Positions 30,697 through 52,030 of a DNA stretch of 64,000 bases are shown piece by piece. Every line of letters begins with the position of its first letter. Positions within the stretch are counted from its first letter, which is position 1. This DNA comes from Candidatus Latescibacterota bacterium. Lineage in GTDB: Bacteria > Latescibacterota > UBA2968 > GCA-2709665. The notes beneath the pieces were generated by a model. The model saw only the letters and a list, made by a program, of their open reading frames with translations. It made no database searches and was not told the DNA's origin. Both the position numbers and the translations under genes were made by a program. The stretch is taken from positions 1,280,001 to 1,344,000 of the forward strand of contig OZ244744.1 in assembly GCA_965219455.1 (NCBI GenBank), given 5' to 3'.

Positions 30697-32541
30697 AGCA
30701 CCTACGCACCAATCTTCCAAGTGTTTTTGCCTTTTCATTCGTGTCTATCGGTGTTCATCGGTAGTTGCATTTGCCTTTCCCCCAGCCCCCGCTCAAGATG
30801 ACGCTGTTTTACCGAAATCGTTGACAAATATCAGAAAATCGCCAAACCCAATCTCGCCATTGCCATTCAGATCATACCGAGCGTCATACCTCGCATCGCC
30901 CCGGCTTAATCCGAATTGATCTACAAATCCCAAAAAATCGGCAAAGTCAACCGTACCACTGCCATCAAAGTCTGCGGGAAGAGCGGGTTTGTCAAACAGG
31001 ACCGCAACACCTCTCTTTTCCAGGTCTGGAATATATGTGTTGATGGCTGCTGAACTCAGCGGGTTGTCCTCGAGATTCAATGTGGTCAGGTTGGTTGCAA
31101 ATTCAAGCCCGATCAAATCGCGGATCTCTCGGTTCCTCAGGTCAAGTGTGGTCAAGCGTTCCACCTCAGCCCTGGTCAGAGGTCCGTAGCCGGATTTGCC
31201 CAAGGCTTCCCGAACGGCCGCTTTGAGGTTGAAGTCGGCCATATGTACTACGGGTGTGACATAAGGCGACAGGTTCCACAAGACGATGGTGTAATCCCCC
31301 TCTCTTTCATAACCGCCGCCTATTGACGTGGCGAAAGTTGTGCCATCGGGGGAAAATGCTGTACAAGCACCAAGCAGTCCAGCGTTAGTGTTGCCCTGAA
31401 ATCTCGCGATTCTTTCGTATGTATTTGCATCCCGAAGATCAATATCCCCACCCTGTGACGCGGTGATAATTTTTTCGCCATCAAGGGTAAATGACGCATA
31501 ACGGAGAAGATTATTCACCCTTACTATAAATTGATCCTTAAAGGCTCTTTTATCCACGTCCCAAAAAGCGACTTTGTTATTAAAAGCACCTGAAACGAGT
31601 GTTTTACCATCCGGTGAGAATGACACAGAAGTGACCGCGTTCTCATAGGGAAGGTTGGCAATCTCGGTCTTTGTCGCCACGTCCCATAGCCTGATCGTGC
31701 TATCAAAAGCACCCGAAGCGAGAGTCTTTCCATCCGGTGAAAATGCCACGCTCTGGACACCATGTGTATGGCCTATAAGAGGGGGGAGTTGGGTTTTTGT
31801 GGACATGTCCCATAGCCTGATTATGTTTGGGCCGCTCCCTTCGGCATCCGTTATTCCTGCGGCGAGGATTTTTCCATCGGGCGAAAAGGCCACACCTTTG
31901 GCGCTATTCCCCTTCTGTCTGTCCAGGGGGATGATGAGTTTGTGGGTCGAATTATGCAGCATCGAAAGGCCTATTTTGCGGATATTGCCGCGCGTATCCA
32001 CCGTCTCGAACGTCATCTTATGTACAAGAATAGTGGAGAGATTCGTAGCACCGGGATCCGATGGAATAATGCCGTCATACCGGAGGTCAACAGTCGCATT
32101 CGTCGCACCCCCTAATAGACGACCTGTCTTCAATTCGGGAGCGCCTGCGGAAAAGTGCGTTTCCGGTGTTGTGACAAATAGAGAGACCTGCTGAAGACCG
32201 TCAGGGTCGCTGAGTTCCAGTTGGATAGGGACGCTTGTTGCACCTGTCCGATATGAACGCGACGAAAGGATCTGGCACGTTGGCAAATCCAGCACATATT
32301 CCTGATACGTTGAACTATCGGAATTGAAATGGGGGTGTACGGCCAAATGCCCGGCGCTGAACTCGGATAACCTGGTTCGTCCACGACCATAAGACATGAT
32401 GTAGGCATCATTGTTGAAATTGTGCCACAATCCGAAAGCGTGTCCCAGTTCGTGGGCTGCTCTGGCAACGAAATTCGGGTCGATATATTGCCTCAACATC
32501 GCCCATCCACTATTTCTTGACGTTTGCAAACCAAGCCCTAA

Positions 32542-34222
32542 CCTGACTAATTCATGAAACTGAACGGAACAGTGTTTTTGGAAGTAGAAAGTGATCTGTA
32601 GAAGGGAAAATAGTCGAATGACGTGTTGGTGACGCGATGATGAGTAATTTTGGGTGTGCCGTCAGCATTGAGGGGTGTCGAGTGCTTTGATTTGTGGTTG
32701 GAAAGGACAGACGGATGCCTTGGTCTTACTTCGTGGCGATGAGAAAGGGATGGATCGGCCGGCGTGAAACGGCGTTATGGATATGCCTTTGCCAAATTAC
32801 AGAGGATGGTGTCATAGAGGTGTTTCAAGGGAAATGAGGTTGGCAAATGGAGTTTGATTTTGGTTTTGAGTTCGGACACTCTCCCGGCGACTTTGAGAAT
32901 GCGATTCTGAATGGTATTAAACTGGGCGTGCGTCCATTGGGTAGCCCGGAGTCCTTTTTCGGTAAGGGTCTGCATCAAGACATAAGCGGCACTATGCAGG
33001 AAGAGACGGAAGTGATTGGCTTCGAAGGTGTGACAGGAGGTACGATCGGAATGGAGAAAGGTTTTGTGATTCTTGATGAAGTTTTCCATCCTGCCGCGCG
33101 CGCAATAGACGGTTTTGTAGATGAATGAGGGCTGGCTACTTTTCAGGTTGGTGACGACAAAGCGTGTATTGGCTTGTCCGGAAGCGGTGATTTCAGCTTT
33201 GTAGATGATGCGCCTTGGCACGGCCCAGGTATGGGCTTGGTAAGCGAAACAGGTAAATAACTGCACGGGCTGTCCGGTTTCCCGATACTGGGCCTTTGCC
33301 TGCTCGATCAACGCGTGTCCCCGTTGTGCAAGCCTGGCATTGCCCGTCTGTCCCAGCACAAAATACACGTCTTGCTCGTCGCAAAAGTCGTGGACCTCAG
33401 GACAGGAAAAATGGCCATCGCCACGCAAAAAGATACGCACGTCCGGCCACGCCTCACGAAGGATTTTCACCAGTCGCTTAAGAATGCTGACAATCTGTTT
33501 GCCGGTAGGACGGGCGCCCGGACGCAGCAGCGTCGTGATCAGTCTTCCTGTCCGGCCTTCATAAATGTGCAAGGGACAGTAACAGCGTTCATCGTAATAG
33601 CCATTGAACAACGACAACTGTTGCTTGCCGTGAACCTCGTCATCGGTGTCATCGATATCCAGAACGACCGCGTCGGGAGGCCTATCGTAGGACGCGATAA
33701 ATCCGTCCACAAGGGCCTCGGCAATACGATATAAGTCCCTGCGACGAATCCCGTTTTCCAATCGACTCATCGTGGGTTGGCTGGCCAACGGCGCCCCTGA
33801 TATCGGCAACCGATCACAGGCCGCCTTGAACGCAGGGTCCTCGCGCAACACATTGCAATCGTTCGCGTCTTCATACGCGCACGCGATCTGAAAGACACGC
33901 TGGCTGATCAGGTCCACCATCGTGTGATCCACATAACTTGGATGCCGACGGTCCGTTAACGCCTCGACGATCCGAGACAGGATGCCGATTCTGGACGCCA
34001 CCTCACGAAGCAGCATCAACCCGATATCGCTGGTGAGCACACCGCCATCGAAGACGGCTTCCACCTGCTTGCCCGAAACACTTGCGAAAGGAAGTGCGAG
34101 TTGACTATCTTGAACTTCCACGGTAGTTTCCTCCCGGTTCATTGTTGTATGGTTATCGGTCTAACCATAATATAATACAATGACTTGGGTAAGGAAACTA
34201 CCTTTTTTATGAATTATTCGGG
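32542..34222 (-). mobile_element. IS1380-family insertion sequence (1681 bp)
   Basis: Imperfect TIRs CCTGACTAATTCATGAAA / CCCGAATAATTCATAAAA; 4-bp target duplication CTAA (32538-32541 and 34223-34226). Confidence 0.93.
32775..34142 (-). CDS. IS1380-family transposase
   Basis: FDGGVLTSD, YEDAND, ASQPTMSRLEN, LDIDDT, RGDGHF, YCARGRMENFIK. Confidence 0.95.
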   Translation of the reverse strand: MNREETTVEVQDSQLALPFASVSGKQVEAVFDGGVLTSDIGLMLLREVASRIGILSRIVEALTDRRHPSYVDHTMVDLISQRVFQIACAYEDANDCNVLREDPAFKAACDRLPISGAPLASQPTMSRLENGIRRRDLYRIAEALVDGFIASYDRPPDAVVLDIDDTDDEVHGKQQLSLFNGYYDERCYCPLHIYEGRTGRLITTLLRPGARPTGKQIVSILKRLVKILREAWPDVRIFLRGDGHFSCPEVHDFCDEQDVYFVLGQTGNARLAQRGHALIEQAKAQYRETGQPVQLFTCFAYQAHTWAVPRRIIYKAEITASGQANTRFVVTNLKSSQPSFIYKTVYCARGRMENFIKNHKTFLHSDRTSCHTFEANHFRLFLHSAAYVLMQTLTEKGLRATQWTHAQFNTIQNRILKVAGRVSELKTKIKLHLPTSFPLKHLYDTILCNLAKAYP

Positions 34223-35092
34223 CTAATACATTTCGAAGTTGAATGTCTTCCTCGTTGCCCAGGACGATGAAGTAAATATTTGATTCGAGATCATATCCAT
34301 ATTCCCATCTAATTCTCTGAAGCGCACGCGCATAGTCGTAATTACCTCCGGTACCATATACGACATGAACCATGGGTTCACCTGGTGCATCTGTTTCATA
34401 ATTGAAGGTTCTTTCTCCGAACCCGTGCGCGCTTATCTGGTCTTCATAAATGCGCTGTACTTCCCGAATGGTTGTCTTCATCTTATCGACCACTTCTTGC
34501 CTGAACCCCTGCGGGTCGGACACGAAGTAGATCATCCTTACGGTGCGCGGCTCTCCCGCATCCAGGAGGGCCGGCTTGGCCGCTGCAGGTTGAGTTTGGC
34601 GATAGTGCTCAAGTTTCGCCAAATCGACCGGGACGCAAAAATGACTACTATCCTCCGCAGCATCGCTCACTGACGAGATCAGCAGGCATAAGGACAGGTT
34701 AAATATGAACTTTTTCATGATTTGGCCTCCTGACGGTGGATTTATATTCCTTCCCGCCGCAATGAATCGTACCCTGTCCACTGACACGTCAATTCCTCCA
34801 TCGGTGCCAGACGCCCCGGCACTTTCCCATATCAAACACCCGGCTTCAACCCCTTGTTGGAAGTTTGTCTGATGACACATTTGTACTTATATTGTGAAAT
34901 ATAAGGAATTTCTGTGAACTTCTAGTGATCGTAGGACCAATGGAGATGATCTTTTGGTGTGCAATCGCCAATGGCGTTAAAAATCTCCGAAAAAGTAAGG
35001 ATGCCGGTCGATAAATAACCGGTTTCTTCACGTTGCCGGAATTCTGACGACGGCGAAGACTAGTGCGCCTGACGCCCGGTGTGGAGGGAAAA

Positions 35093-37469
35093 ATGGAACG
35101 AGCCGAAGCGTTGGAACGAGAGGTAAAGACGCTGCGGGAGCGGCTGTCGCGGCTGAGCGATGCGAGCCTCCGCATCAACGAGAGTCTCGACTTCGAGACT
35201 GTGTTACAAGGGGTCCTGGACAGCGCGCGTGTGCTGACCGGCTCGCGTTACGGCGTGATGACGCTCAGTGACGTAACGGGACAGCCGCGGGACTGCGTGG
35301 CATCCGGAATGACACCCGAGCAGAGCAGGCAGTTCTGGAAAATGCCGAACGGCCTGTAGTTCTTCGCGGCAATGCAGAAAATTAAGGAACCGCTGCGGCT
35401 GCGCGACTTCCACAGCCATACCCGGGAGATGGGCCTTCCCGCGTTCCGCCCGCCGATACCGGTAGGCGATGTTCTTACCTTTCTGGCGGCGCCGGTCCGG
35501 CACAGAGGGGAATCCGTCGGCAACATCTATCTCGCCGAGAAGGAGGGTGGCTGTGCGTTCACACAGGAAGACGAAGAAACGCTGGTGATGTTTGCGTCAC
35601 AGGCCGCATTGGTCATCGCCAACGCGCGGCGCTACAGGGACGAAAAAAAAGCCAAGGCCGATCTCGAGGCCCTGATCAACACGTCGCCGGTTGGCGTTGC
35701 TGTCTTCGACGTCAGTACCGGAAAGGCGGTATCGTTCAACCGCGAGGCCGTGAGAATTTTCGAGAATCTGCGGACCGGGGATCATCCTCCTGAGGAACTC
35801 CTGGAAGTTCTCACTTTCCGCAGGGCCGACGGGCGGAACGTCTCACTCCGAGACGTCTCACTGGCCCAGGCTCTCAGCACCGGCGAGACGATCCGCGCCG
35901 AGGAAGTCGTCTTCGAGGTTCCCGACGGCCGTATGATACGCGCCCTCATCAACGCCACCCCGATACACGCGGATGACGGCAGGGTCGCGTCCTTCGTCGT
36001 CACGCTGCAGGACATGACCCACCTCGAGGAATTGGAGCGGATGCGGGCGGGGTTCCTGGCCATGGTAAGCCACGAGTTGCGGGCGCCGCTGGCTGCCATC
36101 AAGGGTTCCTCCACAACGGTACTGGGCGACGCCGTCTCCCTGGGCACCTCGGAAATGGTCCAGTTCTTCCGCATTATAGACCAGCAGGCCGACCATATGG
36201 GCGTCCTGATCAACGACCTGCTGGACGTGGCGCGCATCCAGGCAGGCACCCTGACGATCAATTCCGAAGCGATGGCGGTTATCACACTGGTGGAGCAGGC
36301 CCGGAATACCATTCTGAGCGGGTGGGGCAGAAACAACATTCACATTGAACTGGCGCCCGCCCTTTCCCCTGTGATGGCGGACCGCCGGCGCATCGTCCAG
36401 GTACTCGACAATCTCCTTTCGAACGCGGCCCGGCACTCGCCCGATGAGTCGCCTATCGTCGTGACCGCCGTACAGGAAGGGGTCCACGTCGTGTTCTCAG
36501 TAACCGATAAGGGTCGTGGGGTGGCTCCCGATCGGCCTGCCGCATCTTTTTCAGAAGCCCTCCGAGGTCGACGCGAATGGCGCGGACGATACGGGTTCAG
36601 GCCTGGGTCTGGCCATCTGCAAGGGCATCGTGGAAGCCCATGGCGGCAGAATTTGGGCAGAGAGTCAGGGAGTGGGCCTGGGAACACGGGTCACGTTCAC
36701 GATTCCGATTGCCGAGGATGCCGGGCATGTCGCACCCGCCGGACCTACCGTCTCTCACGCGCAGAAGAAGGGGCGAAACCGAACACGAATCCTGGTCGTA
36801 GACGATGACCCGCAGACGCTGCGCAACTTGCGGGAGGCACTCTCGAAATCGGGTTATGTTCCGGTCGTGACCGGCGATCCGCACGAAGTGCCGACCCTTA
36901 TTGAGGAGCACCGTCCCCAGCTCGTATTGATGGACCTGGTTCTGCCGGGTATCGACGGAATTGAGGTGATGAAGCGCATCCTGGAAGACACGGTCATCCC
37001 GATCATTTTCCTTTCCGCCTACGGTCACGAGGAAGCGATCGCCCGGGCCTTCGACGCCGGGGCCGACGATTACGTCATCAAGCCGTTCTCGCCGACGGAA
37101 CTCACGGCCAGGATCAGGGCCGCCCTCCGAAAGCGGCCTGCGCAAGCTTCGCCCGCGCCGTTAACGCCTTTTGTGCTGGGGAATTTGACCATCGACTACG
37201 CCGCGCGCAAGGTGGCCGTTGAGGGACACACCGTACGGATGACCGACATCGAGTACCGGCTGCTGGTGGAACTTTCGATCAACGCTGGCCGGATATTGAC
37301 ATACAATTATCTTCTGGAACGGATATGGCTGGCCTGGGGATCCACCGATAACCGGCGATTACGCTCGGCCGTGAAGAACATCCGCCGCAAACTCCACGAC
37401 GAGGCGAGCAACCCCACCTACATCTTCAACGAGCCTCGCGTCGGCTATCGTTTGGGAATGCCTGAGTAA
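35093..37469 (+). pseudogene. GAF-PAS-HisKA-HATPase-REC-OmpR wHTH fused kinase/regulator, disrupted
   Basis: In-frame TAG at 35357-35359 and a +1 C at 36536-36537 (GATCGGCCTGCCG for D-R-L-P). SHELRAPL, NLLSNA, GLGLAI, VVDDD, YVIKPF, PRVGYR motifs. Confidence 0.88.
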
Positions 37470-37898
37470 ACAGGACTCGCGCCGGTGACGATCGGGCCAA
37501 TGACCGACGCCCGGGTCAGGCGAATTCAGCCCGACAGGCACGCACGATTCGTCCGCAGTGTAATTCATCAGCAAAGTCTGCTTGACGGGATCTCAAGAAT
37601 CCGCATTTCTTTCGTCTTCCGTACGTGGACTTTCGCTCTGTGCGTAGGGGTTCGATACGGGTTTCCCGATTGCTTTATGCGGATCTCCGTTTCAACGGGA
37701 TTGTACCGAACAACGCCATCGTGACGAGGGCCGTGACGTCCAATCGCTACTGGCGCGAGGTGAGGTCGGAAGGCCTGGACCAGGCCATGGTGGATGCGGA
37801 GGCAGACGCCGGCAAGATGCTGAATGCGGGAAGGACCAAAGCCGCCTGAAGACGGCTGTCAACAGGACTGTAGAGACAGGAGGATGGGGGACCGGGCA

Positions 37899-40254: not shown

Positions 40255-41418
40255 TCACGCCTTGTACACGACCTCACCCCGGACGATCGTCGCCACGATG
40301 GATAGCGCGGGCTGTCCCTCCGCCCAGCGGAACAGCGTCAGGCTCGCGTCCATTCCGGGCGCCACGCGGCCCAGCCTGCCGTCAACGCCCAGCAGCCGCG
40401 CCGGGTTGATGGTTGCCGTCTCCAACGCCTCGGCCAGCGTGGCGTCGGTATAGGCGACCGTATTCGGAATCCCGTAATCCAGAAACAGCGACGCCCCAGC
40501 CAGGTACGGCGTGCCCGCCAGGGAGATCTTCCCGTTCTCGTGTATCTCCACCTCGTCGCTTCCATAGCTCCGGCCGTAAATGCCGGGCGGCAGCCCGGCA
40601 ATGGACGACACGTCGCTGACCAGGCAGATCCGCTCTTTCTGCTTGGTCCTGTAGAAACTCTTCAACACAGGCGGCGGAAGATGGTGACCGTCCGGGATGA
40701 TCCCCGCCCAGAGTTCGTCGGCGGCAAGCTGCTCCCAGATATAGTTATCGTGGCGGGGAATCTCCGCGTGCGCTCCGTTGCCCAGGTGGGTGGACATCCG
40801 CGCGCCGGCCGCCACCGCCTCCCGGATCCGGGCCCGGCTGGCCCCGGTATGCCCCAGGGCGACGATGACGCCCGCGTCCGATGCCTTCTCGATAAAGGCC
40901 AGGGATCCCTTCCGTTCCGGCGCAAGGGTCAGAATCCTGATCCGGCCGCCGGCCGCCTCCTGGTAACGGCAGAACTCATCCCAGTCGGGATCCCGCGTGT
41001 GCACCAGGGGATGCGCCCCTCTGGGACCGTCCTCGGATGCGATATAGGGCCCCTCAACGTGAAAACCCACAAACGACGCATTTGCGGTATCCGACTGCTC
41101 GCATGCCATGGCCAGCGCCCGCAAACCCGAAATCGCCTGTTCCGCAGGGGACGTCGTTACCGTGGGACAGAAAAGCGCCGTACCCGCCCTGTACGGCCAT
41201 TCACTGGCCTGCAGCACCCGCTCCACCGTCAGATCCCCGGAACTGTAGTTGATCCCGCCGGCCCCGTTGACCTGAACGTCGAATAATCCCGGCGAAATCC
41301 ACACGTCATCGCCCCCCAACGCCGGCGCGCCGTCGTCTTCGATGCTTGCGATTCGACCGTCTTCTATCGTTACCGACACGGGCGCTTCCGTACCCACAAT
41401 TTTACCCCGAAGAACCAT
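40255..41418 (-). CDS. nagA: N-acetylglucosamine-6-phosphate deacetylase family amidohydrolase
   Basis: PGLFDVQVNG, HVEGPY, GAH, TLAPE, LGHT, THLGNG, DGHH, VSD, LAG. Confidence 0.88.
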   Translation of the reverse strand: MVLRGKIVGTEAPVSVTIEDGRIASIEDDGAPALGGDDVWISPGLFDVQVNGAGGINYSSGDLTVERVLQASEWPYRAGTALFCPTVTTSPAEQAISGLRALAMACEQSDTANASFVGFHVEGPYIASEDGPRGAHPLVHTRDPDWDEFCRYQEAAGGRIRILTLAPERKGSLAFIEKASDAGVIVALGHTGASRARIREAVAAGARMSTHLGNGAHAEIPRHDNYIWEQLAADELWAGIIPDGHHLPPPVLKSFYRTKQKERICLVSDVSSIAGLPPGIYGRSYGSDEVEIHENGKISLAGTPYLAGASLFLDYGIPNTVAYTDATLAEALETATINPARLLGVDGRLGRVAPGMDASLTLFRWAEGQPALSIVATIVRGEVVYKA

Positions 41419-41559
41419 TGTTTCTCCTTTGCATGTACTGTCCTGTTTCCGAAATATTCAGCCGCCGGTTCAACCTCCCTCGCTACGTTGTTTACGTTGC
41501 GCTTGTCGGAACGGCCTGTCGAAACCAGTTCGCGATTCGGCGTCCATGAGACTGAATAT

Positions 41560-42105
41560 CCCCCACCCTTTAACGTCCCCTATTTCCTTGCCCTTTTTCT
41601 TGCATCGCCCAAGAAAAAGGGCGAAAAAGAAGGGCGCCGCTCGGCGCGGAGCCGGTTTTTCCGTGAATCGCTTCAGTGGTACAAATGGGAATTGGGTGCC
41701 CTACAAGCCCTCCCGGAACTCCCGGCTTACGGAGATGTACGGAATGACACGGAAAAACCCCCAACTCCACCTCCGGACGGTCGTGTGTATTCCTGGCAAG
41801 GATCCCCGTCTGGATTTGCGTTTGTACCGCTCTTGGCTGACTGCTCTTCTTAGTTTCTTCGTGTCTCTGCGTGAGCCCGGTTTTCCTGGCTTTCCTCCCC
41901 CTTTCCTTTAGGAGAGGGGGCCGGGGGGAGAGGTCTCGCGCCGCGTTTGAGATTGTAGGGGCAACCCTTGTGGTTGCCCGCATTTCGGCGCTGAAGTCAA
42001 TCGCTTTGGATTTTGATTCAAGCTGATGGCTGACAGCCAATGGCTGGTTCTCGGTGTGGACCTCTCCCGTCTACCGTCTTCCCGCTTTCCACGTTCCGCT
42101 TCCAA
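41560..42105. repeat. Cluster of palindromic and short tandem repeat modules in the nagA/IMPase intergenic region
   Basis: Shares three modules with 494-668; 7-mer arrays at 42021-42105. Confidence 0.7.
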
Positions 42106-42148
42106 CTAACGATAACACCCGGCCAACCGATCCGCAATATGTTTTGTC

Positions 42149-42177
42149 TTGACATCACCGAGGGAATTTGGTATACT
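42149..42177 (+). promoter_or_regulatory. Near-consensus sigma70-type promoter with extended -10
   Basis: TTGACA-N17-TATACT, with TGG immediately before the -10. Confidence 0.8.
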
Positions 42178-42265
42178 CAATATTTGTTCGATCCTGCCTT
42201 TGTATGAGTCATATTAGTCCCGGAAAAACACAAAGTTAACTCACTTTACGTGGAAGGAATCACGA

Positions 42266-43213
42266 ATGGGTGACGATCAGGTTTTCGAAAACAGAATCGG
42301 TAACTTCAGTAGGACCGATAATGTAGACGACCTCACGGCGCTCGGCCTGGCGATCGTGGCGGAAACCCTGGATATTCTGCACGACTTGCAGGGCAAGGCC
42401 AGCGGCGCCATGGTCATCCGCACCCGCGAGGGCGATTACAAGAATTGGGACGCCGAGATCTTCGGTGTGGACGAAGCAGCTGAAGGGGCATACATTGGAA
42501 GGCTGAAGGAAAGCCCGCATCCGGTTGTGCTGCTTTCCGAAGAAGCCGGCATGGTCGATCTCACCGCCGGCAAAGAGGGAGACAAACTCTATGGCGTCTC
42601 CGATCCCTTCGACGGCAGCTGGTTGTACAAGAGGGGGCTGCCGTTCATGCAATACAGTTCCCTGGCGCTCTTCGACGCCAACTTCAATCCTCTTGTTTCC
42701 GTCACCGGCGACGTTTTCAACAAAGACCTGGCGTTTGCCAATGGTACCGGCGCCTATATGGCCAGGCTGGACGGAAACGGCTTAACCGGCGTGGAGATGC
42801 TGGATGAAAGCTATCGCAGGCAACGGCACGGGGAGGCGGCCTCCGGCATCAATGACGCCTGTGTCGAATCGTACCTCCTGAAACCGGCCAAATTCCTCAT
42901 GCCACTCATCGATGAATACAGGCCGGTCATCGATGCATTCAAAATGCTCCACCCCAACGGCGGCCCGTACGCATTCGCCGAGGCCGCGGCAGGGCAGATC
43001 GACGTCTACTTTGCCAGGCAGCAGCCCTACGTCGACGTCTTCTCCGGTATCCAGATCGCGGAACAGGCCGGCCTGGTTGTTACCGATTTCGACGGTAACG
43101 ACGTGCCGAAGCCCACTGAAGATTACGAGACCGTCTTCGACGTCCTGGTCAGCCGGACGCAGACCCTGCACGACCAAACCCTCGAGAAAATCTCGGAATG
43201 CAGAAAGGAATAA
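42266..43213 (+). CDS. Inositol monophosphatase/FBPase (FIG) superfamily phosphatase, divergent
   Basis: LSEEAG, SDPFDGS, VDVFSG..AEQAG..TDFDG. Confidence 0.8.
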   Translation: MGDDQVFENRIGNFSRTDNVDDLTALGLAIVAETLDILHDLQGKASGAMVIRTREGDYKNWDAEIFGVDEAAEGAYIGRLKESPHPVVLLSEEAGMVDLTAGKEGDKLYGVSDPFDGSWLYKRGLPFMQYSSLALFDANFNPLVSVTGDVFNKDLAFANGTGAYMARLDGNGLTGVEMLDESYRRQRHGEAASGINDACVESYLLKPAKFLMPLIDEYRPVIDAFKMLHPNGGPYAFAEAAAGQIDVYFARQQPYVDVFSGIQIAEQAGLVVTDFDGNDVPKPTEDYETVFDVLVSRTQTLHDQTLEKISECRKE

Positions 43214-43216
43214 CTG

Positions 43217-44188
43217 ATGGCCCATAACGGAACTGGCACGAAGGACGATCCGGTCATCGTTACCGAACTGGCGGGGGAAGATGTTCCCGGCGAGTTGAGA
43301 CCTTCCAACTTCTTCGACCTCGACAGATATCCGTTCGAGCACCGCGCGCTGGTGGACGGGGCAAGGTCGGTCGTGGATCTCATCGGCAAAGACGGAATCG
43401 AAAAATACGCAAGGGAATGGCTGGCCGAAAAAATCGGTTCGGCGGAAGGCGTGGAAGAACGGACCGGCCTCACCGGAATCGGGAACTACACCGTGCTGGT
43501 CGAACCCGGCGCCGTATGCGAACCTCTCTTCGTGCACGGATCGCTCGATGGCGGGGGCCACACGCTCTACGTCGCAAGAAACGCAAAGGTGGTGGGTGCG
43601 GTCGTCTACCTCGACAGTGGGGACATCTACGTCGGTTCCGGAGCCGTTATCGAGCCCACGGCCGGCGTGAAGGGCCCGGCCATCATCGGCCCGAATAACG
43701 AAATCCGTCAGGGCGCTTATCTCCGGGGCAACACCATCCTGGGCGGTCACAGGAAACAGGGTGACAACGCCATCCGGGGCGAACTCAAAAACGTTCTGTT
43801 GCTAAACGAAGCCAATTTCCCCCATCCCTCGTATCTCGGCGACAGCCTCTGCGGGTACGCCACCCACTTCGGCAACCAGGCCACGGCCGCGAACCTGGGC
43901 ATCATCCAGGGCGTTCGTGAACGGGACAAGCGCGTCAACCTGAAGGTCGAAATCAACGACAAATGGTACGACCTCGGCGGATCCAAAATGGGCGTGGTTC
44001 TCGGCGACAGAACCCAACTGGCCTGCGGATCCCTCACGGATCCAGGCACCCTGCTGGGGCCGACGTGCATCTCCTACGGCCTTGCGTACGTCAAAGCCGG
44101 CTACTATCCCGCCGGCACCATGTTCAAAACCCGGTCCGAGAGGGTCGTCGAGACGCAGAAAGGCATCTTCGATCCGGACAAGCTCTAG
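43217..44188 (+). CDS. Left-handed beta-helix (GlmU C-terminal-like) acyltransferase
   Basis: Hexapeptide repeats, GPAIIG..IRQGAYLRG, ELKN, PHPSYLGDS, ATAAN, KMGVVLGD. Confidence 0.8.
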   Translation: MAHNGTGTKDDPVIVTELAGEDVPGELRPSNFFDLDRYPFEHRALVDGARSVVDLIGKDGIEKYAREWLAEKIGSAEGVEERTGLTGIGNYTVLVEPGAVCEPLFVHGSLDGGGHTLYVARNAKVVGAVVYLDSGDIYVGSGAVIEPTAGVKGPAIIGPNNEIRQGAYLRGNTILGGHRKQGDNAIRGELKNVLLLNEANFPHPSYLGDSLCGYATHFGNQATAANLGIIQGVRERDKRVNLKVEINDKWYDLGGSKMGVVLGDRTQLACGSLTDPGTLLGPTCISYGLAYVKAGYYPAGTMFKTRSERVVETQKGIFDPDKL

Positions 44189-44233
44189 TATGCTGTCCCG
44201 GAAACAGGTTGCCTAAATTCGGGACAGCACACT
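44187..44233. mobile_element. Internally deleted 47-bp copy of the MITE
   Basis: AGTATGCTGTCCCGGAAACAGGTTGCCTAAATTCGGGACAGCACACT; overlaps the TAG stop of the upstream gene. Confidence 0.7.
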
Positions 44234-44425
44234 GGAAGACGTCCCGGCGAGGTCCGGCGGCGTCTTCCCATTCCAGAACAAGAACGACAACGCATTTCGA
44301 ATCCATCGGAAGCGTTGTCGTTTTCTCTTTTCGTCCGTCAACGTCCGCGGCGCGTCGGGATGTGTCCCAGAAGGCGGCCGAGAGAGGCCGCTTCCCGATC
44401 TCCGCGATTCCGGAAGGACAACTGG

Positions 44426-46009
44426 ATGATTGGCCAGAAAAACACGCATGAATGGATCCGGGCGATTCGCGGCCGGGACAACGATCTGATCTCCCGCCTT
44501 CAGTCCATCTACGGCAACAGCGAGAGCCTTCTTGAAGAACGTCTGAACGCCCTGTCGGAAACGGCGACCCGATTCGGGGAAGCCTACGGCGACAGGGGCA
44601 TCAGTTTTGTCAGGTCGCCGGGAAGATTGAACACCGTGGGCATGCACGCCGACCACCGGGGGGCCTTTATCAACCCCATCTCCCTGGACAAAGAGATCCT
44701 CATCTGTTTTTCCCGCAGAGACGACGACCGGGTTGAAGTCCACAATTTGGACCCGGCCTATGGAACCCGGCGTTTCCATTTGTCGGAAACGTACCCGGAC
44801 GCGCCGATCCGTTCTGACGCCGAGTGGCTGGACTGGACGCAGGAAAAAACCGACGAACGCAAGGCGGCGGGCGTAAACGAGGACTGGATTACAAAACTGC
44901 AGGCCCCGCCGGCCTACCTGCACACCCGCTATCCCGATAAACAGCTCATGGGCTTCGACGGGGTCCTGGGAAGCAGCATTCCCGACCAGGGCGGCTTGAG
45001 CTCCTCGTCTGCGGTTGTGGTTGCGTTGATCGAAATCATGACACACGTCAACGACATCGATCTGGACGACGGGCAGTTCGTAAGGTATGCGGGCACCGCG
45101 GAATGGTACGTGGGGACCCGGGGCGGCTTCGGCGACCACGCCGCGATCAAGTGCGGCCAACTGGGAAAAATCACCCACATGAAGACCCTGCCCGAGTTGA
45201 TGATCGACGCCTATCTTCCGTTCCCGGACGGTTATCAGATCGTCATCTTCGACTCGGGTGTCCAGGCCAACAAAACCGGAGCCGCCGGGCAGAAATTCAA
45301 TGAAAAGACGGCAACCTACGAGATTGGAGAGGTCTATCTCAGAAACCACCTGGAAGCACACCACCCGGACGTCATCCGACGGGTGGTGGAGGCCAGAAAA
45401 GATCTGGAAATCGAAAAAAAGTTCCACCTCGCCGACGTGGTCGAGTGCCTGGACCAGTCTCAGATTTATGAATTGATCGGGGGCCTGCCTGAACAGATTG
45501 ACCGCCGGGGGCTGCTGCGCCAGTTGCCTGAACAGAAGCGATTTCTTGAACAGCAATTCGCGACCCACGATGAACCTGCAAACGGCTACCAGGTCCGCAT
45601 GGTCATCACGTACGGGATCGCCGAGTCCGAACGCAGCAGAAATCTGAAGGACGTGTTGAACCGGAACCGGGTGGACCTCTACGGCCAGCTGATGAATGTC
45701 TCCCACGACGGCGACCGAGTGCACCTGGACGCGCCCCGATTCGACCCGGGAAAAGACCTCCACCTCCAGCCGGGCGACTACAATTGCAGCATCCCGCAGA
45801 TCGATGAAATGGTCGACGTCGCCCTGGATGCCGGCGCCGAGGGCGCGCAAGTATCCGGCGCCGGCCTGGGCGGAAGTATGATGGTCCTGGTCAAATCAGA
45901 CGGCGTGCAGGGTATCATCGAAGCCATGCGCGATAGGTACTACACCCTCCGCGGGATCGAGGAACGACTGACGGTTGCGTCTCCCGTTCAGGGCGCCGGG
46001 GTTTTGTAG
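44426..46009 (+). CDS. Galactokinase-like GHMP sugar kinase, divergent
   Basis: SPGRLNTVGMHADH, IPDQGGLSSSSA, GGFGDH, FDSG, GAQVSGAGLGG. Start at ATG 44426 (RBS AAGGA). Confidence 0.82.
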   Translation: MIGQKNTHEWIRAIRGRDNDLISRLQSIYGNSESLLEERLNALSETATRFGEAYGDRGISFVRSPGRLNTVGMHADHRGAFINPISLDKEILICFSRRDDDRVEVHNLDPAYGTRRFHLSETYPDAPIRSDAEWLDWTQEKTDERKAAGVNEDWITKLQAPPAYLHTRYPDKQLMGFDGVLGSSIPDQGGLSSSSAVVVALIEIMTHVNDIDLDDGQFVRYAGTAEWYVGTRGGFGDHAAIKCGQLGKITHMKTLPELMIDAYLPFPDGYQIVIFDSGVQANKTGAAGQKFNEKTATYEIGEVYLRNHLEAHHPDVIRRVVEARKDLEIEKKFHLADVVECLDQSQIYELIGGLPEQIDRRGLLRQLPEQKRFLEQQFATHDEPANGYQVRMVITYGIAESERSRNLKDVLNRNRVDLYGQLMNVSHDGDRVHLDAPRFDPGKDLHLQPGDYNCSIPQIDEMVDVALDAGAEGAQVSGAGLGGSMMVLVKSDGVQGIIEAMRDRYYTLRGIEERLTVASPVQGAGVL

Positions 46010-46054
46010 GGAGTACCGCGTGCCATCGGCATGTCGAGACGTTGAGGAGGCGCG

Positions 46055-46690: not shown

Positions 46691-46725
46691 CGCATGACAG
46701 TTGCAACTATCGACCCCCTGTCATT

Positions 46726-48975
46726 CTACGCCGCCTTGCCGAAGGCCCAGGCGAAGACCAGGAAGTCCGCAAAGCCGATTGTCCCGTCCCGGTCCAGGTC
46801 AAAGCGCGGGTCGTAACCGACCTCGCCCCGGCTGAATCCGAACTTCGCGGCGAATTTGACGAAATCGCCAAAACCCACCTCGCCGTCGCCGTCGAAGTCC
46901 GGGACACGCGATTGTGTGGACGTAAACGAAGCCGTATCCCACAAATAGATCCAGAAGTCGGATGCGGCGGCCAACACGCCGCCGTCGGGCGAGAACGCTA
47001 TCGATTTGACCCAACTTGGCTGGGCGAACGTGTCAACTAACTTTTCACTCGTCACGTCCCACAGGTCGACCCTCCCAAGGCCTGAATCGGCTGCCAGGGC
47101 GCCGCCGTCGGGCGAGAACGCCACGTCCCCTACTCTTCGGTCACCCGCATCGAGCGTGGCGATGTGTTGCCGGGACGCCACGTCCCACAGTCTGACGGTA
47201 CCTTCCGTCGACCCCGAGGCCAACAGGCCGCCGTCGGGCGAGAACGCCACGGAATTGACGTGGTTGCCATGACCTTCCAGCGTGGCGATCTCTTCCCGGG
47301 ACGCCACGTCCCACAGCTTGATCGTCCTATCACCAGACCCCGAAGCCAGGGTGGTCCCATCGGGCGAGAACGCCAGAGACCTGACGCCTTGTGAAGTAGT
47401 ATGCCCCTTCAACGTCGCGATCTCTTCCCGGGACGCCACGTCCCACAGTATCACGGTACTATCCGATACCGAGGCCAACAGGTCGCCGTCCGGCGAATAC
47501 GCCACGGACCTGACGTAGTTGCCATGCCATTCCAGCGTGGCGACCTCTTCCCGGGACGCCACGTCCCACAGTGTGACGTTACCCTGCCACAATCCCGACG
47601 CCAGAGTGCTCCCATCGGGCGAAAACGCCACAGACGCGACCCCGTAAGTGTTAGGCGCTTCGAGCGTGGCGAGGTGTTGCCGGGACGCCACGTCCCACAG
47701 TCTGACGGTACCTTCCGTCGACCCCGCGGCCAATAGGCCGCCGTCAGGCGAGAATGCCACAGAGGTGAAAGCATCACAAGATTGATCCTTAAGGGACGCC
47801 AGGTGATACGGCGACTGTTGCGCAATCACAGACGAGACGGTTCCCGTGTTCCCATGCGTATCCGTAGATATACCCCACAAGAAATGCGCAGGGGAATCCG
47901 AAAGACTCGAATTGCGCTGGCCTGGTATAACGCCGTCATACTCGAACGCGACGATGGTCTCCGTTTCGCCTGCCAACATACGGCACGCCTTGACGTTCGG
48001 GATTGCACCCACTCGCCATTGGCGGGGGCTGCGAACCATCAGGATCACCTGGTGAACGCCATCCGGGTCGCTCACCCTCATCGGGATGGTCACGTGCGTC
48101 GAGCCGGCAGGATACCAGCGCGTGGGGGCGATGAATTCGATGGTGGGCCGCGATGACCAATCGGTTTCCTGTGAGATCTCGGGATTGAACCAGGACGCCA
48201 CCGACAGATATCCCGCCGAGCAGGCCGACAACCGCCACCGACTTCTTCCGCCAGACGACATGACGTGGTTTTTATCGCGGTAATCGTGCCAATCTATCCC
48301 GAAAGCATGGCCCAGTTCATGGGCGACTGTATTGAATCCGAAGCCTGCCGAAACGAACGCATAACCGTTGTTCTTATTCCCATTTCCCATTCCTGACCAC
48401 CCTCCGCCAGAGATATCGTAAATATGATCTTTACTGTTGTCAACAACGACAAGGTACACGTGGTAACGTCTTTCATACTCCCGAAAAATCTCGTTCAAGG
48501 AACGGTTACTCGTGGCTTTGAGATAATAGGCGTCGCCGTGATCGCCGTCCACGCGGTGCACCAGGGGCTCACCCTCCGAATCCGTCTCATAGCGGAAGTT
48601 CATCCCCCCGTACCCGTGCGCAGCCATCTGCTCTCCGAAGAACGTATGCGTCAGACGCATCATCGTCTTCATCGAATCCACCACCTCCTGACGATAGGGA
48701 CGGTCGTTCGGCAGAAAGTAGATCATGCGCACCGTGCGCGGCTCTCCCGCGTTCTTTTCCGCCGCCGCCTTCCCCGCATGCGGCAGATCCTCCCGCAGCC
48801 ACGCCTCGTCATCCACCACCGCGCCTGCCTGCGTACCGCGGACAGACAGGCAGAAGTGCACGCCGTCGGCAGGCGGCGACGAAACAGTAGCCACCGTCGG
48901 CAGACAGAGCACTACCAGTAAACACGCCGCCAGCGTGAACATCGACGTCAGCCAACGATCGCTCGATCTCTTCAT
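46726..48975 (-). CDS. Secreted metzincin-like peptidase + WD40 propeller + dockerin-like tail
   Basis: Signal peptide, GEPRTVRMIYFLPNDRP, HELGHAFGIDWH..VMS, about seven VAFSPDG..LWDV repeats, DFDGDGEVGFGDF..DLDRDGTIGFADF. Confidence 0.88.
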   Translation of the reverse strand: MKRSSDRWLTSMFTLAACLLVVLCLPTVATVSSPPADGVHFCLSVRGTQAGAVVDDEAWLREDLPHAGKAAAEKNAGEPRTVRMIYFLPNDRPYRQEVVDSMKTMMRLTHTFFGEQMAAHGYGGMNFRYETDSEGEPLVHRVDGDHGDAYYLKATSNRSLNEIFREYERRYHVYLVVVDNSKDHIYDISGGGWSGMGNGNKNNGYAFVSAGFGFNTVAHELGHAFGIDWHDYRDKNHVMSSGGRSRWRLSACSAGYLSVASWFNPEISQETDWSSRPTIEFIAPTRWYPAGSTHVTIPMRVSDPDGVHQVILMVRSPRQWRVGAIPNVKACRMLAGETETIVAFEYDGVIPGQRNSSLSDSPAHFLWGISTDTHGNTGTVSSVIAQQSPYHLASLKDQSCDAFTSVAFSPDGGLLAAGSTEGTVRLWDVASRQHLATLEAPNTYGVASVAFSPDGSTLASGLWQGNVTLWDVASREEVATLEWHGNYVRSVAYSPDGDLLASVSDSTVILWDVASREEIATLKGHTTSQGVRSLAFSPDGTTLASGSGDRTIKLWDVASREEIATLEGHGNHVNSVAFSPDGGLLASGSTEGTVRLWDVASRQHIATLDAGDRRVGDVAFSPDGGALAADSGLGRVDLWDVTSEKLVDTFAQPSWVKSIAFSPDGGVLAAASDFWIYLWDTASFTSTQSRVPDFDGDGEVGFGDFVKFAAKFGFSRGEVGYDPRFDLDRDGTIGFADFLVFAWAFGKAA

Positions 48976-49049
48976 ACCAGCATCACTCCTTTCGGGTCAT
49001 TGCCAACGTCACATCAAACACAGTCTCTTGACGCGCGACCGGACGGCGA

Positions 49050-49425
49050 CCCCTCCCCCGGCCCCTCCCCGACGCGGGGAGGGGAGCAGTGCCTCACGTG
49101 CCGCCTGGCAGGCCGCGCGAGTGACGGACGCTCAGGTCTCATTCGACGCTGCAGTAGATCCTTCTTCAGCCTGACGGCTTCCTCAGGATGACAGTTTGTG
49201 CCGACGGGTGGCCGACACAGTTCGCCAATCGCTATCGCAATACATGTCATTCAGAGCGCAGCGAAGAATCTCCCGTCTTCTCGATTGGACGTGGAGCGGA
49301 AGCCTTCACCAGCCCATTTGCGCGGAGACATCGTCGGGCATCGAGGCGGGCAGACAGGAATGTCCGCCCCACCTTCACACACGCTTCCTCACAGTGCGGG
49401 CGCCCACAAGGGACGCCCCTACACT
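49050..49425. repeat. Repeat block: the 112-bp module, composite repeat copy 5, and a GTAG REP
   Basis: Direct repeat of the 46128 block; empty site for the hairpin at 49176/49177. Confidence 0.85.
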
Positions 49426-49525
49426 GGCATCGGGGCGTGATGCGCATGGCCTGCCTGACAGGTGGGGTGGGTGTGTCGTGAAATGCGTCGCTGCTGTCAC
49501 ATTTTGCGACAGTGGGAGGGACATA

Positions 49526-52030
49526 TTACGACGTCGATTTACCGAAGGCCCCGGCGAAGATGAGAAAGTCCGCGAACCCGATCGTCCCGTCCCCATCCAG
49601 GTCGCACCGGACGTCGTACCCTTCGTCGCCCTGACGTTGTCCGAACTTTGCCGCAAACAGCACGAAATCGCCAAAGTCTATCTCCCCGTCGCCATTCACG
49701 TCGGGGCTGCCATGGGCACGCGCCGTAAAGACCGCCGGCTCGAGATCGGCCGCGCGCGCCACCACGGTGTTCATCCCCGCCTCCCTGCCCAGCGTCAAGG
49801 TCGTGGTGGCGTTCCCGCTCGTATCGGCCCTGGCGGCCGTTGCCGATACCGCGCCGCCGCCGTCGGTTACGGTAAACAGCACGGGCATGTCCGGAAACGG
49901 GTCTCCGTGCTCGTCACGCACCGACACCACGAACGGCGCGGCCAATGCCGACGCCACCGCACCCTGCTGCCCATCGCCAGAGACCGTCCTCACGAGAACG
50001 GGACGCCGGCGCACCCACTCGGAGGTGTCCCACACCTCTATCCTGCCTCTGTAGGTTGACGCCGCCAGCACGGACCCGTCGTGCCAATAGGCCAGCGAAG
50101 AGATCGAGCCGGTATGCGGCAGCCTCTCGTAGAGCTTCCCCGTGGCGGCGTTGCGCAGGATCACCGTACCTTCCGGGCCCCCCGAGGCCAGGATCTCCCC
50201 GTCCGGCGAAAACGTCAGATAATTGACCGTAGGCGCATGCACCATGGGCAGGTCCGCGATAATGTTCCGCGCGGCCGCGTCCCACAGCGCGATCAACCCC
50301 TCGGCCCCCGCGGTGGCAGCCAGCACGCGCCCGTCAGGCGAGAACGCGATTGAATTGATGCCTCTCCCGCCGGGCCGCACAAGCCGGTACCGTACCTTGC
50401 GCGCGGCCACGTCCCAGAGCCCGATGGAATAGTCGTATGAAGCCGACGCCAGGATGCTGCCGTCAGGCGAAAACAGCAACTGTGAAATTGAGCCGGTATG
50501 CCCTTTCAGGACGCCCATCAGTTCTCCGGTGGCCACGTCCCATACCTTCATCTTGTCCTCGTCGGAAAATGCGCCCGAGATCAGCGTCGCGCCGTCGGGA
50601 GAGAACGCCAACGCAAGCGTCCACCACGTATGCCCTGCCAGCGTGCCCGTCCGCTCCCGCGACGCCACGTCCCACAGCGTGATCCAGCCGTCTACGGTTC
50701 CCGCGGCCAGCATCGACCCGTCCGGCGAGAACGCCAGCGACCGAATCTCGCTGTCGCTCCCGCTCAGGGTGGCCGTCTCTTCATACGTCTTCGTATCCCA
50801 CAGCTTGATGGTGCTGTCCCCCGATCCCGATGCCAGCGTCGTCCCGTCGGGGGACATTGCGAGCTGTCGGACGAATTTCGTATGTCCTTCCAGCGTGGCC
50901 AGGTGATACGGCGACCGCTGTGCGAACGTCCACCCCTCGTAGCCCTGATCACCTCGCTTGTCCACCGCCAGGAATCCGATATAATGGGATGGCGGATCCG
51001 ACAACGACGTGATGGTTCTACGGCCGGGTACCACGCCGTCATACTCGTACTCGATGACCGCTTCCTTCCCCCCCGACAGCGTGCGGCACGCCTTGAGTTC
51101 GAGAATAAAGCTCCCGCCGATGGGGTCCGAAATCAACATGGTCAGCTGATGCAGGCCGTGACGCGCCTTGAGCTTCAGACGCACGGTAATGCTTTGCGAA
51201 CCCTCTTCATACCACAAGGGCGACAGCAGCTCAACCGTGGGGCGTGCGTCCCAATCCCATTCAAGGGGGACCTCCGCGTTGAAAAAAGGGTGCACGGACA
51301 GGAACGCCGCGCTGCACGCCGATAGACGATCTCTTCCGCGCACTATCGAGAGGATGTGCGCGTGATCCCGGGAATCGTGGTAGAGCATCCCGAAGGCGTG
51401 CGCCAGTTCGTGCGCGGCTGTGTCGAAGCTGACACCGCCGGGAACGTACACCATCCCTCCATCCTTGCCACCGGCCGCCCTGCCTGCCGGGGCGCCAAAA
51501 GGACCCAGTCTGTGTCCGAAGCGGTTGTCGATCACGATGAACAGAACGACGTTGGCCGGATCATACGCGTCCCTGACCTCCCTTTGCACCGTTTCCGTCA
51601 TACGGTTGTCATAATAGCGGTCCGCGTGGGCGCCGTCCAGGCGGTGCACCACGGGCTCGCCATCCGCGTCCGCCTCATAGCGGAACGTCGTATAACCATA
51701 CCCGTGCGATTCCATCTGCTGTCCGAAGAACCGCTGCAGACGCACCATCATCGCCTTCATCGTATCCACCACCGACTGCCGGTACGGACGGTCGTTCGGC
51801 AGAAAGTAGATCAGTCGCACCGTACGCGGCTCGCCTACGTTCAACTCCGACGCAACCTTGCCCGCAACAGCAGCATCGTCCCGCCGCGCCTCGTGATCCA
51901 GCACCTCGCAGCGGTACTCACCCACGGCAGGCGGCGACGCGGGACCCGGAGCCGGGTAGCAGAGCAATGCCAGAAAGCACGTCGCCAGCGTCAACGTTAC
52001 TTGCAAACGATCAACAATCCATCTATCCAC
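49526..52030 (-). CDS. Secreted metzincin-like domain + WD40 + Big_1-like Ig + dockerin-like tail
   Basis: GEPRTVRLIYFLPNDRP, HELAHAFGMLYH, WD40 repeats, SGDGQQG..V.D..G.P..F.V..GGG, DVNGDGEIDFGDF..DLDGDGTIGFADF. Confidence 0.88.
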   Translation of the reverse strand: MDRWIVDRLQVTLTLATCFLALLCYPAPGPASPPAVGEYRCEVLDHEARRDDAAVAGKVASELNVGEPRTVRLIYFLPNDRPYRQSVVDTMKAMMVRLQRFFGQQMESHGYGYTTFRYEADADGEPVVHRLDGAHADRYYDNRMTETVQREVRDAYDPANVVLFIVIDNRFGHRLGPFGAPAGRAAGGKDGGMVYVPGGVSFDTAAHELAHAFGMLYHDSRDHAHILSIVRGRDRLSACSAAFLSVHPFFNAEVPLEWDWDARPTVELLSPLWYEEGSQSITVRLKLKARHGLHQLTMLISDPIGGSFILELKACRTLSGGKEAVIEYEYDGVVPGRRTITSLSDPPSHYIGFLAVDKRGDQGYEGWTFAQRSPYHLATLEGHTKFVRQLAMSPDGTTLASGSGDSTIKLWDTKTYEETATLSGSDSEIRSLAFSPDGSMLAAGTVDGWITLWDVASRERTGTLAGHTWWTLALAFSPDGATLISGAFSDEDKMKVWDVATGELMGVLKGHTGSISQLLFSPDGSILASASYDYSIGLWDVAARKVRYRLVRPGGRGINSIAFSPDGRVLAATAGAEGLIALWDAAARNIIADLPMVHAPTVNYLTFSPDGEILASGGPEGTVILRNAATGKLYERLPHTGSISSLAYWHDGSVLAASTYRGRIEVWDTSEWVRRRPVLVRTVSGDGQQGAVASALAAPFVVSVRDEHGDPFPDMPVLFTVTDGGGAVSATAARADTSGNATTTLTLGREAGMNTVVARAADLEPAVFTARAHGSPDVNGDGEIDFGDFVLFAAKFGQRQGDEGYDVRCDLDGDGTIGFADFLIFAGAFGKSTS

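Follow-up and report, generated by a model that had tools for sequence, protein, structure and literature searches.

Two O-glycopeptidases of Akkermansia, viz. OgpA (Amuc_1119), characterised in 2020 (PMC7518263), and AMUC_1438, characterised in 2022 (PMC9513282), are the closest characterised relatives of the modular proteins that are the subject of this work. Both enzymes are reported to cut directly N-terminal to glycosylated Ser or Thr residues, and the OgpA description places the glycopeptide in the cleft between two domains and records a His triad, a catalytic Glu and a Met-turn (PMC7518263). AMUC_1438 requires the Tn antigen; its description gives only a local match to PF12044 and no MEROPS family, and its authors expected the family to be large and diverse (PMC9513282). 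The proteins analysed here are encoded by three genes, designated A, B and C, on the minus strand of a 64,000-nucleotide stretch of DNA (hereafter the window), which is part of the one 5.84-Mb contig that makes up the genome of a Candidatus Latescibacterota bacterium (contig OZ244744.1, positions 1,280,001 to 1,344,000). An initial annotation, made from the sequence alone, described them as three paralogous fusions of a metzincin with a WD40 domain, carrying diverging zinc sites and a swappable module before a dockerin-like tail.

WD40 and LRR proteins, termed 'eukaryote-like proteins', count as a textbook hallmark of sponge-symbiont genomes; what they do has long been puzzling. In sponge microbiomes they are abundant in Poribacteria and Latescibacterota and have been discussed as host-interaction factors (PMC3909097; PMC8163846), and they often bear signal peptides and C-terminal sorting-type domains, as noted for poribacterial WD40 genes (PMC3909097). 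The proteins described here resemble them in phylum, in repeat types, and in the combination of signal peptides with sorting-type tails. However, the word 'peptidase' occurs in neither main text of these two papers (and PMC3909097, which alone was checked for 'protease', lacks that word as well), whereas 10 of the 42 stop-to-stop open reading frames (ORFs) with WD40 in the present genome carry a metzincin head in the same frame and an 11th, belonging to the paralogue P3, carries it across a frameshift.

Our analyses indicate that A, B and C are quite probably exported zinc endopeptidases of a large family, in which an OgpA/AMUC_1438-type head is joined to swappable binding arms and a dockerin-like anchor. 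What was originally observed is real and stands well above chance, although one of the three genes is broken, and its interpretation was right in part; the catalytic kind of the family is already known, and the proteins are a new architectural variant of a known peptidase family. The three genes and their parts (window coordinates) are as follows.

30793..32541, minus strand: C-terminal piece of gene A, comprising the end of the catalytic domain, beta-domain, degenerate WD40 propeller, LRR and dockerin-like tail (zinc motif 32422-32454; LRR about 31051-31158; dockerin-like tail about 30829-30975; stop at 30793)
32542..34222, minus strand: IS1380-family insertion sequence within gene A, with its transposase gene at 32775..34142
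34223..34718, minus strand: N-terminal piece of gene A, with start codon at 34718, signal peptide (by eye), HFC motif, AAK, GEPRTVRMIYF and the first half of the catalytic domain
46726..48975, minus strand: gene B, 749 amino acids (aa), with signal peptide (by eye), OgpA/AMUC_1438-type module (catalytic plus beta-sandwich, 47806-48975), WD40 propeller (about 46906-47793) and dockerin-like tail (46729-46908); Cys42 at 48850-48852, zinc motif with a one-residue (+1) insertion at 48286-48321, Met239 at 48259-48261
49526..52030, minus strand: gene C, 834 aa, GTG start, with the same type of N-terminal module as B, WD40 propeller, Big_1 (about 49745-49936) and dockerin (about 49559-49702); zinc motif HELAHAFGMLYH at 51377-51412, with Leu at the Met-turn position

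Genes B and C are uninterrupted reading frames. In the translations of all three genes a signal-peptide-like N-terminus, recognised by eye, is followed by HFCV, HFCL or YRCE, by A(A/G)K and by GEPRTVR(M/L)IYF, and the WD40 (PF00400) scores of 96.7 bits for A, 215.9 for B and 187.4 for C lie far over the Pfam cut-off of 27. All of the motifs of the shared layout that had been proposed, from the Cys of the pro-segment to the tail, are present. The slot before the tail, which had been called swappable, is occupied in A by an LRR (LRR_4 at E 5e-5, short of its cut-off, with weak matches to internalin models too), is vacant in B, and carries in C a Big_1 domain that exceeds its cut-off (37.2 vs 34.9 bits). 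The description as three paralogous fusions holds for B and C, which are intact, but gene A is split by an insertion sequence and the family has 12 members in the genome.

Comparison of the N-terminal modules (N-modules) with Pfam and NCBIfam produced only sub-threshold matches around HExxH, and none of the curated families extends over the module; Reprolysin_4/5, Astacin, Matrixin, Metallopep (PF12044), Mep72 and BF0631 were each rejected as the family of the head, all of them being below their cut-offs. A profile of 19 N-module sequences, compared with solved structures, identified AMUC_1438 as the best match (8df2_A, E 2.7e-15, query positions 46-217; 8dek_B, 5.1e-15) and OgpA as the second (6z2d_A, E 2e-8), with a snake-venom metzincin next at 2.6e-4 and classical metzincins at 2.6e-4 and above. 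Residues 1-390 of B were modelled with AlphaFold2 (AF2) at a predicted local distance difference test score (pLDDT) of 86.4 and a predicted template modelling score of 0.79. Foldseek with this model placed OgpA first (E 4.8e-17) and AMUC_1438 next (2.4e-15), and in VIA-align the model matched AMUC_1438 (8dek_A) with Z 24.6 and a root-mean-square deviation of 3.4 Å (285 aligned residues, model residues 78-390) and OgpA (6z2p_A) with Z 23.6 (285 aligned, model residues 78-388). The best other entry, 1bsw, reached Z 12.6, its 162 aligned residues being confined to the catalytic domain, and adamalysins, ADAM17, ADAMTS and ulilysin gave Z 11.8-12.6 over model residues 79-270 only. Residues H219, E220, H223 and H230 (B numbering) are invariant in 40 of 40 aligned sequences, HExxH is found in all 12 paralogues, and A(A/G)K and GEPRTVR, which align with AMUC_1438 residues 32-60, hence belong to the conserved fold. 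These profile and model comparisons are decisive: the head is a metzincin, as had been suggested (Z about 12 with the adamalysin/ADAM17 fold and about 24 with OgpA/AMUC_1438), and more precisely a member of the OgpA/AMUC_1438 family with its two-domain fold of catalytic domain plus beta-sandwich. The beta-domain of the initial annotation is likewise borne out, since model strands at residues 278-386 of B align with the C-terminal domain of OgpA; the zinc motif and beta-domain together represent the two-domain unit of the OgpA/AMUC_1438 enzymes.

The best match in both sequence and fold, AMUC_1438 of Akkermansia muciniphila (PDB 8DF2, 8DEK), shares with the family the HELGH..FGL.H motif, the A-A-K region and the first beta-strand, and, according to its description, likewise has only a partial sub-threshold PF12044 match and a substrate-binding module C-terminal to the catalytic region, the latter being a putative likeness here. 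However, the two are only 14-15% identical, and AMUC_1438 has a CBM51-like NPCBM module where the present family has WD40, LRR or Big_1 and a dockerin-like tail. OgpA (PDB 6Z2D/O/P/Q) has the same two-domain fold, inter-domain cleft, His triad, catalytic Glu and Met-turn, but it is a stand-alone protein of about 385 residues without repeat arm or tail, is 15-16% identical, and has its Met-turn 26 residues after the first His, compared with 19-20 in the family here. The classical metzincins (adamalysin/ADAM, M12B and others; e.g. ADAM17, snake-venom P-I enzymes and ulilysin) share the catalytic fold over about 160-175 residues, the HExxHxxGxxHD motif of the canonical paralogues and the Met-turn, but lack the OgpA-type beta-sandwich. 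We propose that the N-terminal 390 residues form a metzincin catalytic domain and a beta-sandwich as in the two Akkermansia enzymes; by analogy with OgpA, the zinc would be held by H219, H223 and H230 of B, Glu220 would activate the water, and the substrate would lie in the cleft between the domains.

The zinc motifs read HELGHAFGLWH...IMS in A, HELGHAFGIDWH...VMS in B and HELAHAFGMLYH...ILS in C, exactly as originally quoted. The strict HExxHxxGxx(H/D) spacing is seen in A and 8 other paralogues, whereas B, C and P3 have one extra residue before the third His. These sites were compared in 271 sequences, of which 11 are paralogues that are intact or nearly so and 260 are the relatives closest to B in the databases; the sample is biased because the relatives were picked for their closeness to B. 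Of the 204 sequences with canonical spacing, 197 have Met in the Met-turn column (position by alignment), 6 have Leu and 1 has Ser; of the 67 with the +1 insertion, 53 have Leu, 13 have Met and 1 has a gap, which brings the column overall to Met 210, Leu 59 and other 2. Among the 67 insertion sequences the Gly of HELGH is replaced by Ala in 35 and by Thr in 18. C is typical of the +1/Leu subtype; in B and P3 the insertion occurs together with Met and Gly. For B, the model has pLDDT 93-97 in the zinc-site region, and a solved ulilysin M290L mutant (3lum_A) aligns with the B model at Z 11.8; Met-turn mutants of ulilysin are reported to be folded and active but less stable. We interpret the zinc sites of B and C as a recurrent subtype of the family and not as decay. 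This subtype would fit an active enzyme, because the catalytic residues are invariant in the 40 aligned sequences, the site is confidently modelled and the structure of the ulilysin mutant has been solved. The recurrent +1/Leu zinc-site subtype appears undescribed.

The same departures from the strict spacing in B and C, together with the loss of the Met-turn Met and the Ala for Gly in C and the aberrant Met-turn region of P11, are what one would expect if at least B and C were pseudo-enzymes or adhesins, i.e. 'eukaryote-like' host-interaction repeat proteins of the kind discussed for sponge-symbiont WD40 and LRR proteins (PMC8163846; PMC3909097), in which the head is a scaffold without catalysis. 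We consider this very improbable, in view of the invariant His-Glu-His-His set, the HExxH in every paralogue, the conservation of the variant site as a confidently folded subtype in 67 of 271 sequences, the solved Met-to-Leu metzincin, and the strong purifying selection on the head in the one pair examined, which is a canonical one (P6/P7, dN/dS 0.12).

N-terminal to everything that aligns with the solved enzymes lies the Cys of the pro-segment, which is kept in 226 of the 240 sequences having the column, within the motif V-H-F-C-x-x-x-D-x-E (V 71%, H 75%, F 71%, C 94%, D 78%, E 81%). This conservation would suit latent matrix proteases resembling the matrix metalloproteinases (MMPs), in which the Cys caps the zinc as a switch, unglycosylated collagen or other extracellular matrix (ECM) proteins are cut, and WD40 binds the substrate. 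The motif has no counterpart in the aligned part of AMUC_1438 (from its residue 32), and the Cys is retained in A and P10, where C252 and C331 are both absent, which suggests that it has a role of its own. However, the motif is unlike the Cys-switch motif of the MMPs, PRCGxPD, and the segment is modelled at pLDDT <50 in both AF2 folds (B residues 29-55 and residues 24-36 of the canonical paralogue P4; no metal in the models), so that the P4 fold is uninformative on docking of the segment. A complex prediction of B residues 26-72 against 73-390 with zinc (ipSAE 0.03, mark 0.32; controls not run) gave no verdict. A C252-C331 disulfide proposed from co-loss was rejected as too weakly founded, as both residues are present in 260 of the 271 sequences and 4 double losses stand against 7 single ones; the disulfide argument is weak in consequence. 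Furthermore, the nearest characterised relatives are O-glycopeptidases, and the OgpA paper states that there is no evidence of a proenzyme (PMC7518263). A Cys switch as such is possible, these data neither supporting nor refuting it. Latent MMP-like matrix proteases are, in our view, unlikely: an MMP-like switch and collagen substrates are unsupported, and the case for the collagen/ECM substrates envisaged at the outset is weakened, the closest characterised relatives being peptidases that depend on O-glycans.

The tails of A, B and C each show two D-x-D-x-D-G...F-x-D-F repeats; the EF-hand_1 model matches in A as well, and it exceeds its cut-off in B and C. The same genome encodes cohesin domains (PF00963; 13 matches at E <= 0.01, 7 of them over cut-off, in ORFs of 281-1,665 aa), 3 of the 7 over-cut-off matches being in ORFs that also carry a dockerin, and it yields 53 Dockerin_1 matches at E <= 0.01, of which 36 are over cut-off. 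A cohesin-dockerin system is plausible because dockerin-like tails and cohesin domains occur in one genome; the 'docked' state of these proteases, as it had been termed, accordingly stands as plausible rather than demonstrated. In their tails with two F-hand calcium-loop repeats and in the cohesin proteins of the same genome the proteins recall the dockerin enzymes of the cellulosome, but the cargo is a peptidase with repeat arms and not a glycoside hydrolase, the host is a metagenome-assembled genome (MAG) of Latescibacterota and not a Firmicute, and the pairing with cohesin is predicted. The dockerin-like double EF-hand would attach the protein, in a calcium-dependent manner, to the cell's own cohesin-bearing proteins, and the WD40, LRR and Big_1 modules behind the head may be exosites that choose or hold the target. 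The members of the family form a large, modular and probably surface-docked set.

A search of the genome with the N-module of B recovered 13 matches among 20 scored candidates. These correspond to 12 genes (A, B, C and P3 to P11), since two of the matches are halves of A, and their open frames range from 387 to 1,568 aa. The arms differ widely: WD40 and tail only in B, P6 and P8; WD40, Big_1 and tail in C, P4 and P5; WD40, LRR and tail in A, P9 and P10; WD40, LRR, fn3, LRR and tail in P7; and LRR, Big_1 and tail without WD40 in P11. P3 (contig positions 5082563-5087207, locus L112) consists of a head only, of 380 aa, which overlaps the start of a 1,167-aa WD40 frame and is parted from it by a frameshift at a short tandem duplication; it may be a second broken family member or an assembly artefact. 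P9 (contig positions 3790232-3794350, locus L020) begins with a lipoprotein-like N-terminus (LSGAC), followed by about 380 extra residues and then by a second hydrophobic segment and the usual Cys motif; either the gene has been fused to one upstream or translation may begin internally.

Pairwise identities of the N-modules are mostly 29-54% (A vs B 34%, A vs C 34% over the comparable part, B vs C 45%; the genome search with the B module gave C at 47%, E 2.2e-99), with closer pairs in P6/P7 (82%) and A/P10 (64%). P6 and P7 have near-identical heads and very different tails (727 vs 1,509 aa), which provides direct support for module swapping. Both the paralogue count and the dN/dS comparison suggested in the initial annotation were carried out, the latter for P6 and P7 only: dN/dS is 0.12 for the head (355 codons) and 0.36 for the WD40 part (266 codons, dS near saturation), the WD40 part evolving about three times faster than the catalytic module. 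This is one point that fits WD40 as a substrate selector, a role that we infer. Of the other 32 WD40 ORFs of the genome 4 were checked, and in these the WD40 begins almost at once. Two tandem arrays without a metzincin head were also seen, of about 6 (contig positions 3702895-3716885) and about 13 (4388577-4416300) WD40 ORFs of 350-820 aa; the two array members examined, L109 and L110, have WD40 repeats nearly from the start, and several of the array ORFs have Dockerin_1 matches.

Animal-host glycoproteins are our leading guess for the substrates, and kinship with OgpA and AMUC_1438 raises the question of an O-glycan requirement, which we put forward tentatively, as somewhat less probable than its absence. 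Several observations weigh against the proposed reading or parts of it. Identity to the solved enzymes is only 14-16%, and the HMMER alignment with them stops at the zinc motif. The aromatic glycan pocket of OgpA (Y116, F166, W199, Y236) is not demonstrably conserved in the family and the Tn-antigen-binding residues of AMUC_1438 (D166, Y171, Y217) are not mappable onto it, all of these falling in gapped loops; a residue mapping from the HMMER alignments was rejected as unreliable for this reason, so that O-glycan dependence is without residue support. Most paralogues do have aromatic residues 4-7 positions before the first His, near W199/Y217, which are at most candidate equivalents. With respect to the zinc site, parsimony on the tree (FastTree, 271 sequences) requires no fewer than 7 changes for the +1 insertion and no fewer than 10 for the Leu state. 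From these changes the +1/Leu state is recurrent or exchanged and not one old split, and an origin of the insertion forms as one derived clade was rejected, the largest pure clade holding 40 of the 67; nor is the +1/Leu association an independent-sample statistic, the sequences having been chosen as the nearest relatives of B. In the tails, only C exceeds the Dockerin_1 cut-off of 22.9 bits (C 26.2, A 17.1, B 12.0), and the B tail is absent from the genome-wide Dockerin_1 list at E <= 0.01. Finally, the sugar genes that lie tail-to-tail with B, although compatible with amino-sugar salvage, prove nothing by adjacency alone, and the nagA-, GlmU- and galactokinase-like matches among them are all below NCBIfam cut-offs.

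The head is widespread. In a library of 1.84 billion proteins it was found in 1,512 cluster representatives at E <= 1e-3 and in 479 at E <= 1e-30, and a second database, covering lengths of 411-1,311 aa only, gave 1,421 proteins, among 120 listed of which 2 were named ('hypothetical' and 'PD40 domain-containing'). Such architectures are the norm for the family: among the best 150 representatives, 112 have WD40, 48 LRR, 82 a Big_1-like domain and 38 the tail, and most of the 10 without any module are records of short or truncated proteins. A scan of one-genome-per-species contigs with two subfamily-specific peptide patterns identified 174 stretches encoding relatives, and the best 80 of these are, by title, from Poribacteria (39), Latescibacterota (30), Gemmatimonadota (6), Rhodothermales (1) and 'uncultured bacterium' (4), the closest relatives thus being in MAGs of these four named groups. 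Within the phylum of the window the family is present in 55 of 151 sampled genomes, confined to three families (17/18, 18/30 and 19/64) and found in 0 of 38 genomes of eleven others; copy numbers per genome in this survey are lower bounds, as 13 candidates were scored per genome. All 14 genomes of the window's own genus have it. In a protein atlas the nearest clusters are labelled 'hypothetical protein' (best cosine 0.95), some having PF12044 in 60% of members, with Planctomycetota and Verrucomicrobiota as the most frequent phyla; we take this as no more than a lead, in line with the range of the AMUC_1438 family.

In a literature search of main texts, with little coverage of subscription journals, we found no paper in which OgpA-like or metzincin peptidases were linked to sponge symbionts, WD40 or dockerin. 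The initial annotation had allowed that the family might already be characterised; this applies to the catalytic module, known from OgpA and AMUC_1438, but the WD40/LRR/dockerin architecture was not met with in the literature. The WD40/LRR/Big_1/dockerin architecture and its spread over four symbiont phyla appear undescribed. It is conceivable, though on balance we doubt it, that a considerable part of the WD40 and LRR proteins of sponge symbionts are the targeting arms of a large, unnamed branch of the OgpA/AMUC_1438 glycopeptidases, including the new HExxHxxGxxxH/Leu subtype, mounted on the cell surface by cohesin and dockerin as a 'proteolytic cellulosome' directed against host glycoproteins. 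The groups concerned would be the Poribacteria, Latescibacterota, Gemmatimonadota and Rhodothermales that dominate sponge microbiomes. A peptidase head on WD40 ORFs in four symbiont phyla turns the vague label of 'host interaction' into a testable question of enzymology, viz. which host or matrix (glyco)proteins are cut and whether the repeat arms choose them. It also extends the OgpA/AMUC_1438 family into marine symbionts, and the recurrent zinc-site variant tests how essential the metzincin spacing and Met-turn are.

Gene A is interrupted by an element of 1,681 bp (32542-34222), located between its N- and C-terminal parts. The transposase at 32775..34142 matches the IS1380 model NF033539 of NCBIfam (E 6.1e-116, 387.5 bits vs a cut-off of 180) and Pfam DDE_Tnp_1_4 (E 2e-155), the ends are imperfect terminal inverted repeats with 15 of 18 bases matching (by eye), and 4-bp target-site duplications lie at 32538-32541 and 34223-34226. 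In its transposase, inverted repeats and short target duplication the element is thus a member of the IS1380 family. The genome has six full-length copies of 97-100% identity and several fragments, and each of the six copies is flanked by a 4-bp direct duplication of the YTAR type (CTAA, TTAA or TTAG). Because all six near-identical full copies have such duplications, the element has been active recently in this genome.

The start codon of gene A at 34718 is preceded by GGAGG, its N-terminal piece matches residues 22-183 of the B N-module (E 4.3e-26) and its C-terminal piece residues 200-380 (E 1.7e-28), and the frame runs on across the empty site with a junction that is collinear and of equal length with that of the closest intact paralogue, P10. 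Contigs of the public runs X5 and X11, from different studies, contain the empty-site joint 32537->34223, with 1,685 bases skipped, 4 bases ambiguous and a shorter side of 41 letters; the best-covering run, X1, has no empty-site joint. As these are metagenome contigs placed at >=90% likeness, the bridging contigs may come from related strains. Whichever strain they come from, the insertion in gene A is recent and not fixed, and the IS1380-family element would have inactivated gene A recently in this strain. The RNA run X15 gave low-depth contigs only, most of them on the insertion sequence, with one 168-base piece on gene A having 11 differences.

Directly upstream of C, at a distance of 86 bp, lies a large gene for another presumably exported protein with a dockerin tail.

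52117..58605, minus strand: 2,162-aa fn3/He_PIG protein with a Dockerin_1 tail and without a metzincin module

This protein has 13 fn3 (E 3e-125) and 6 He_PIG (E 1.3e-44) stretches and a poly-Pro linker, and its Dockerin_1 match, at 35.7 bits, is the best in the genome. The four sugar genes mentioned above (40255-46009), which lie between a RecD2-type helicase gene and B and may be an amino-sugar salvage set, are nagA-like, inositol-monophosphatase-like, GlmU-LbH/acetyltransferase-like and galactokinase-like (564 aa). On the plus strand at 35372-37469, a GAF-PAS histidine-kinase ORF overlaps an OmpR-type response-regulator ORF, with HATPase_c split over the two (profile positions 2-62 in the kinase ORF, 54-110 in the regulator ORF), which suggests that a hybrid kinase gene has been disrupted by a frameshift or by faulty assembly. 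A UvrD-helicase/PD-(D/E)XK nuclease region of AddAB-like type at 26714-30326 (plus strand) is spread over four overlapping ORFs, possibly through a further frameshift or several errors of assembly. Lastly, the plus strand at 17442-22166 encodes a large, exported-type repeat protein of 1,574 aa with NHL, FG-GAP and ASPIC-UnbV repeats.

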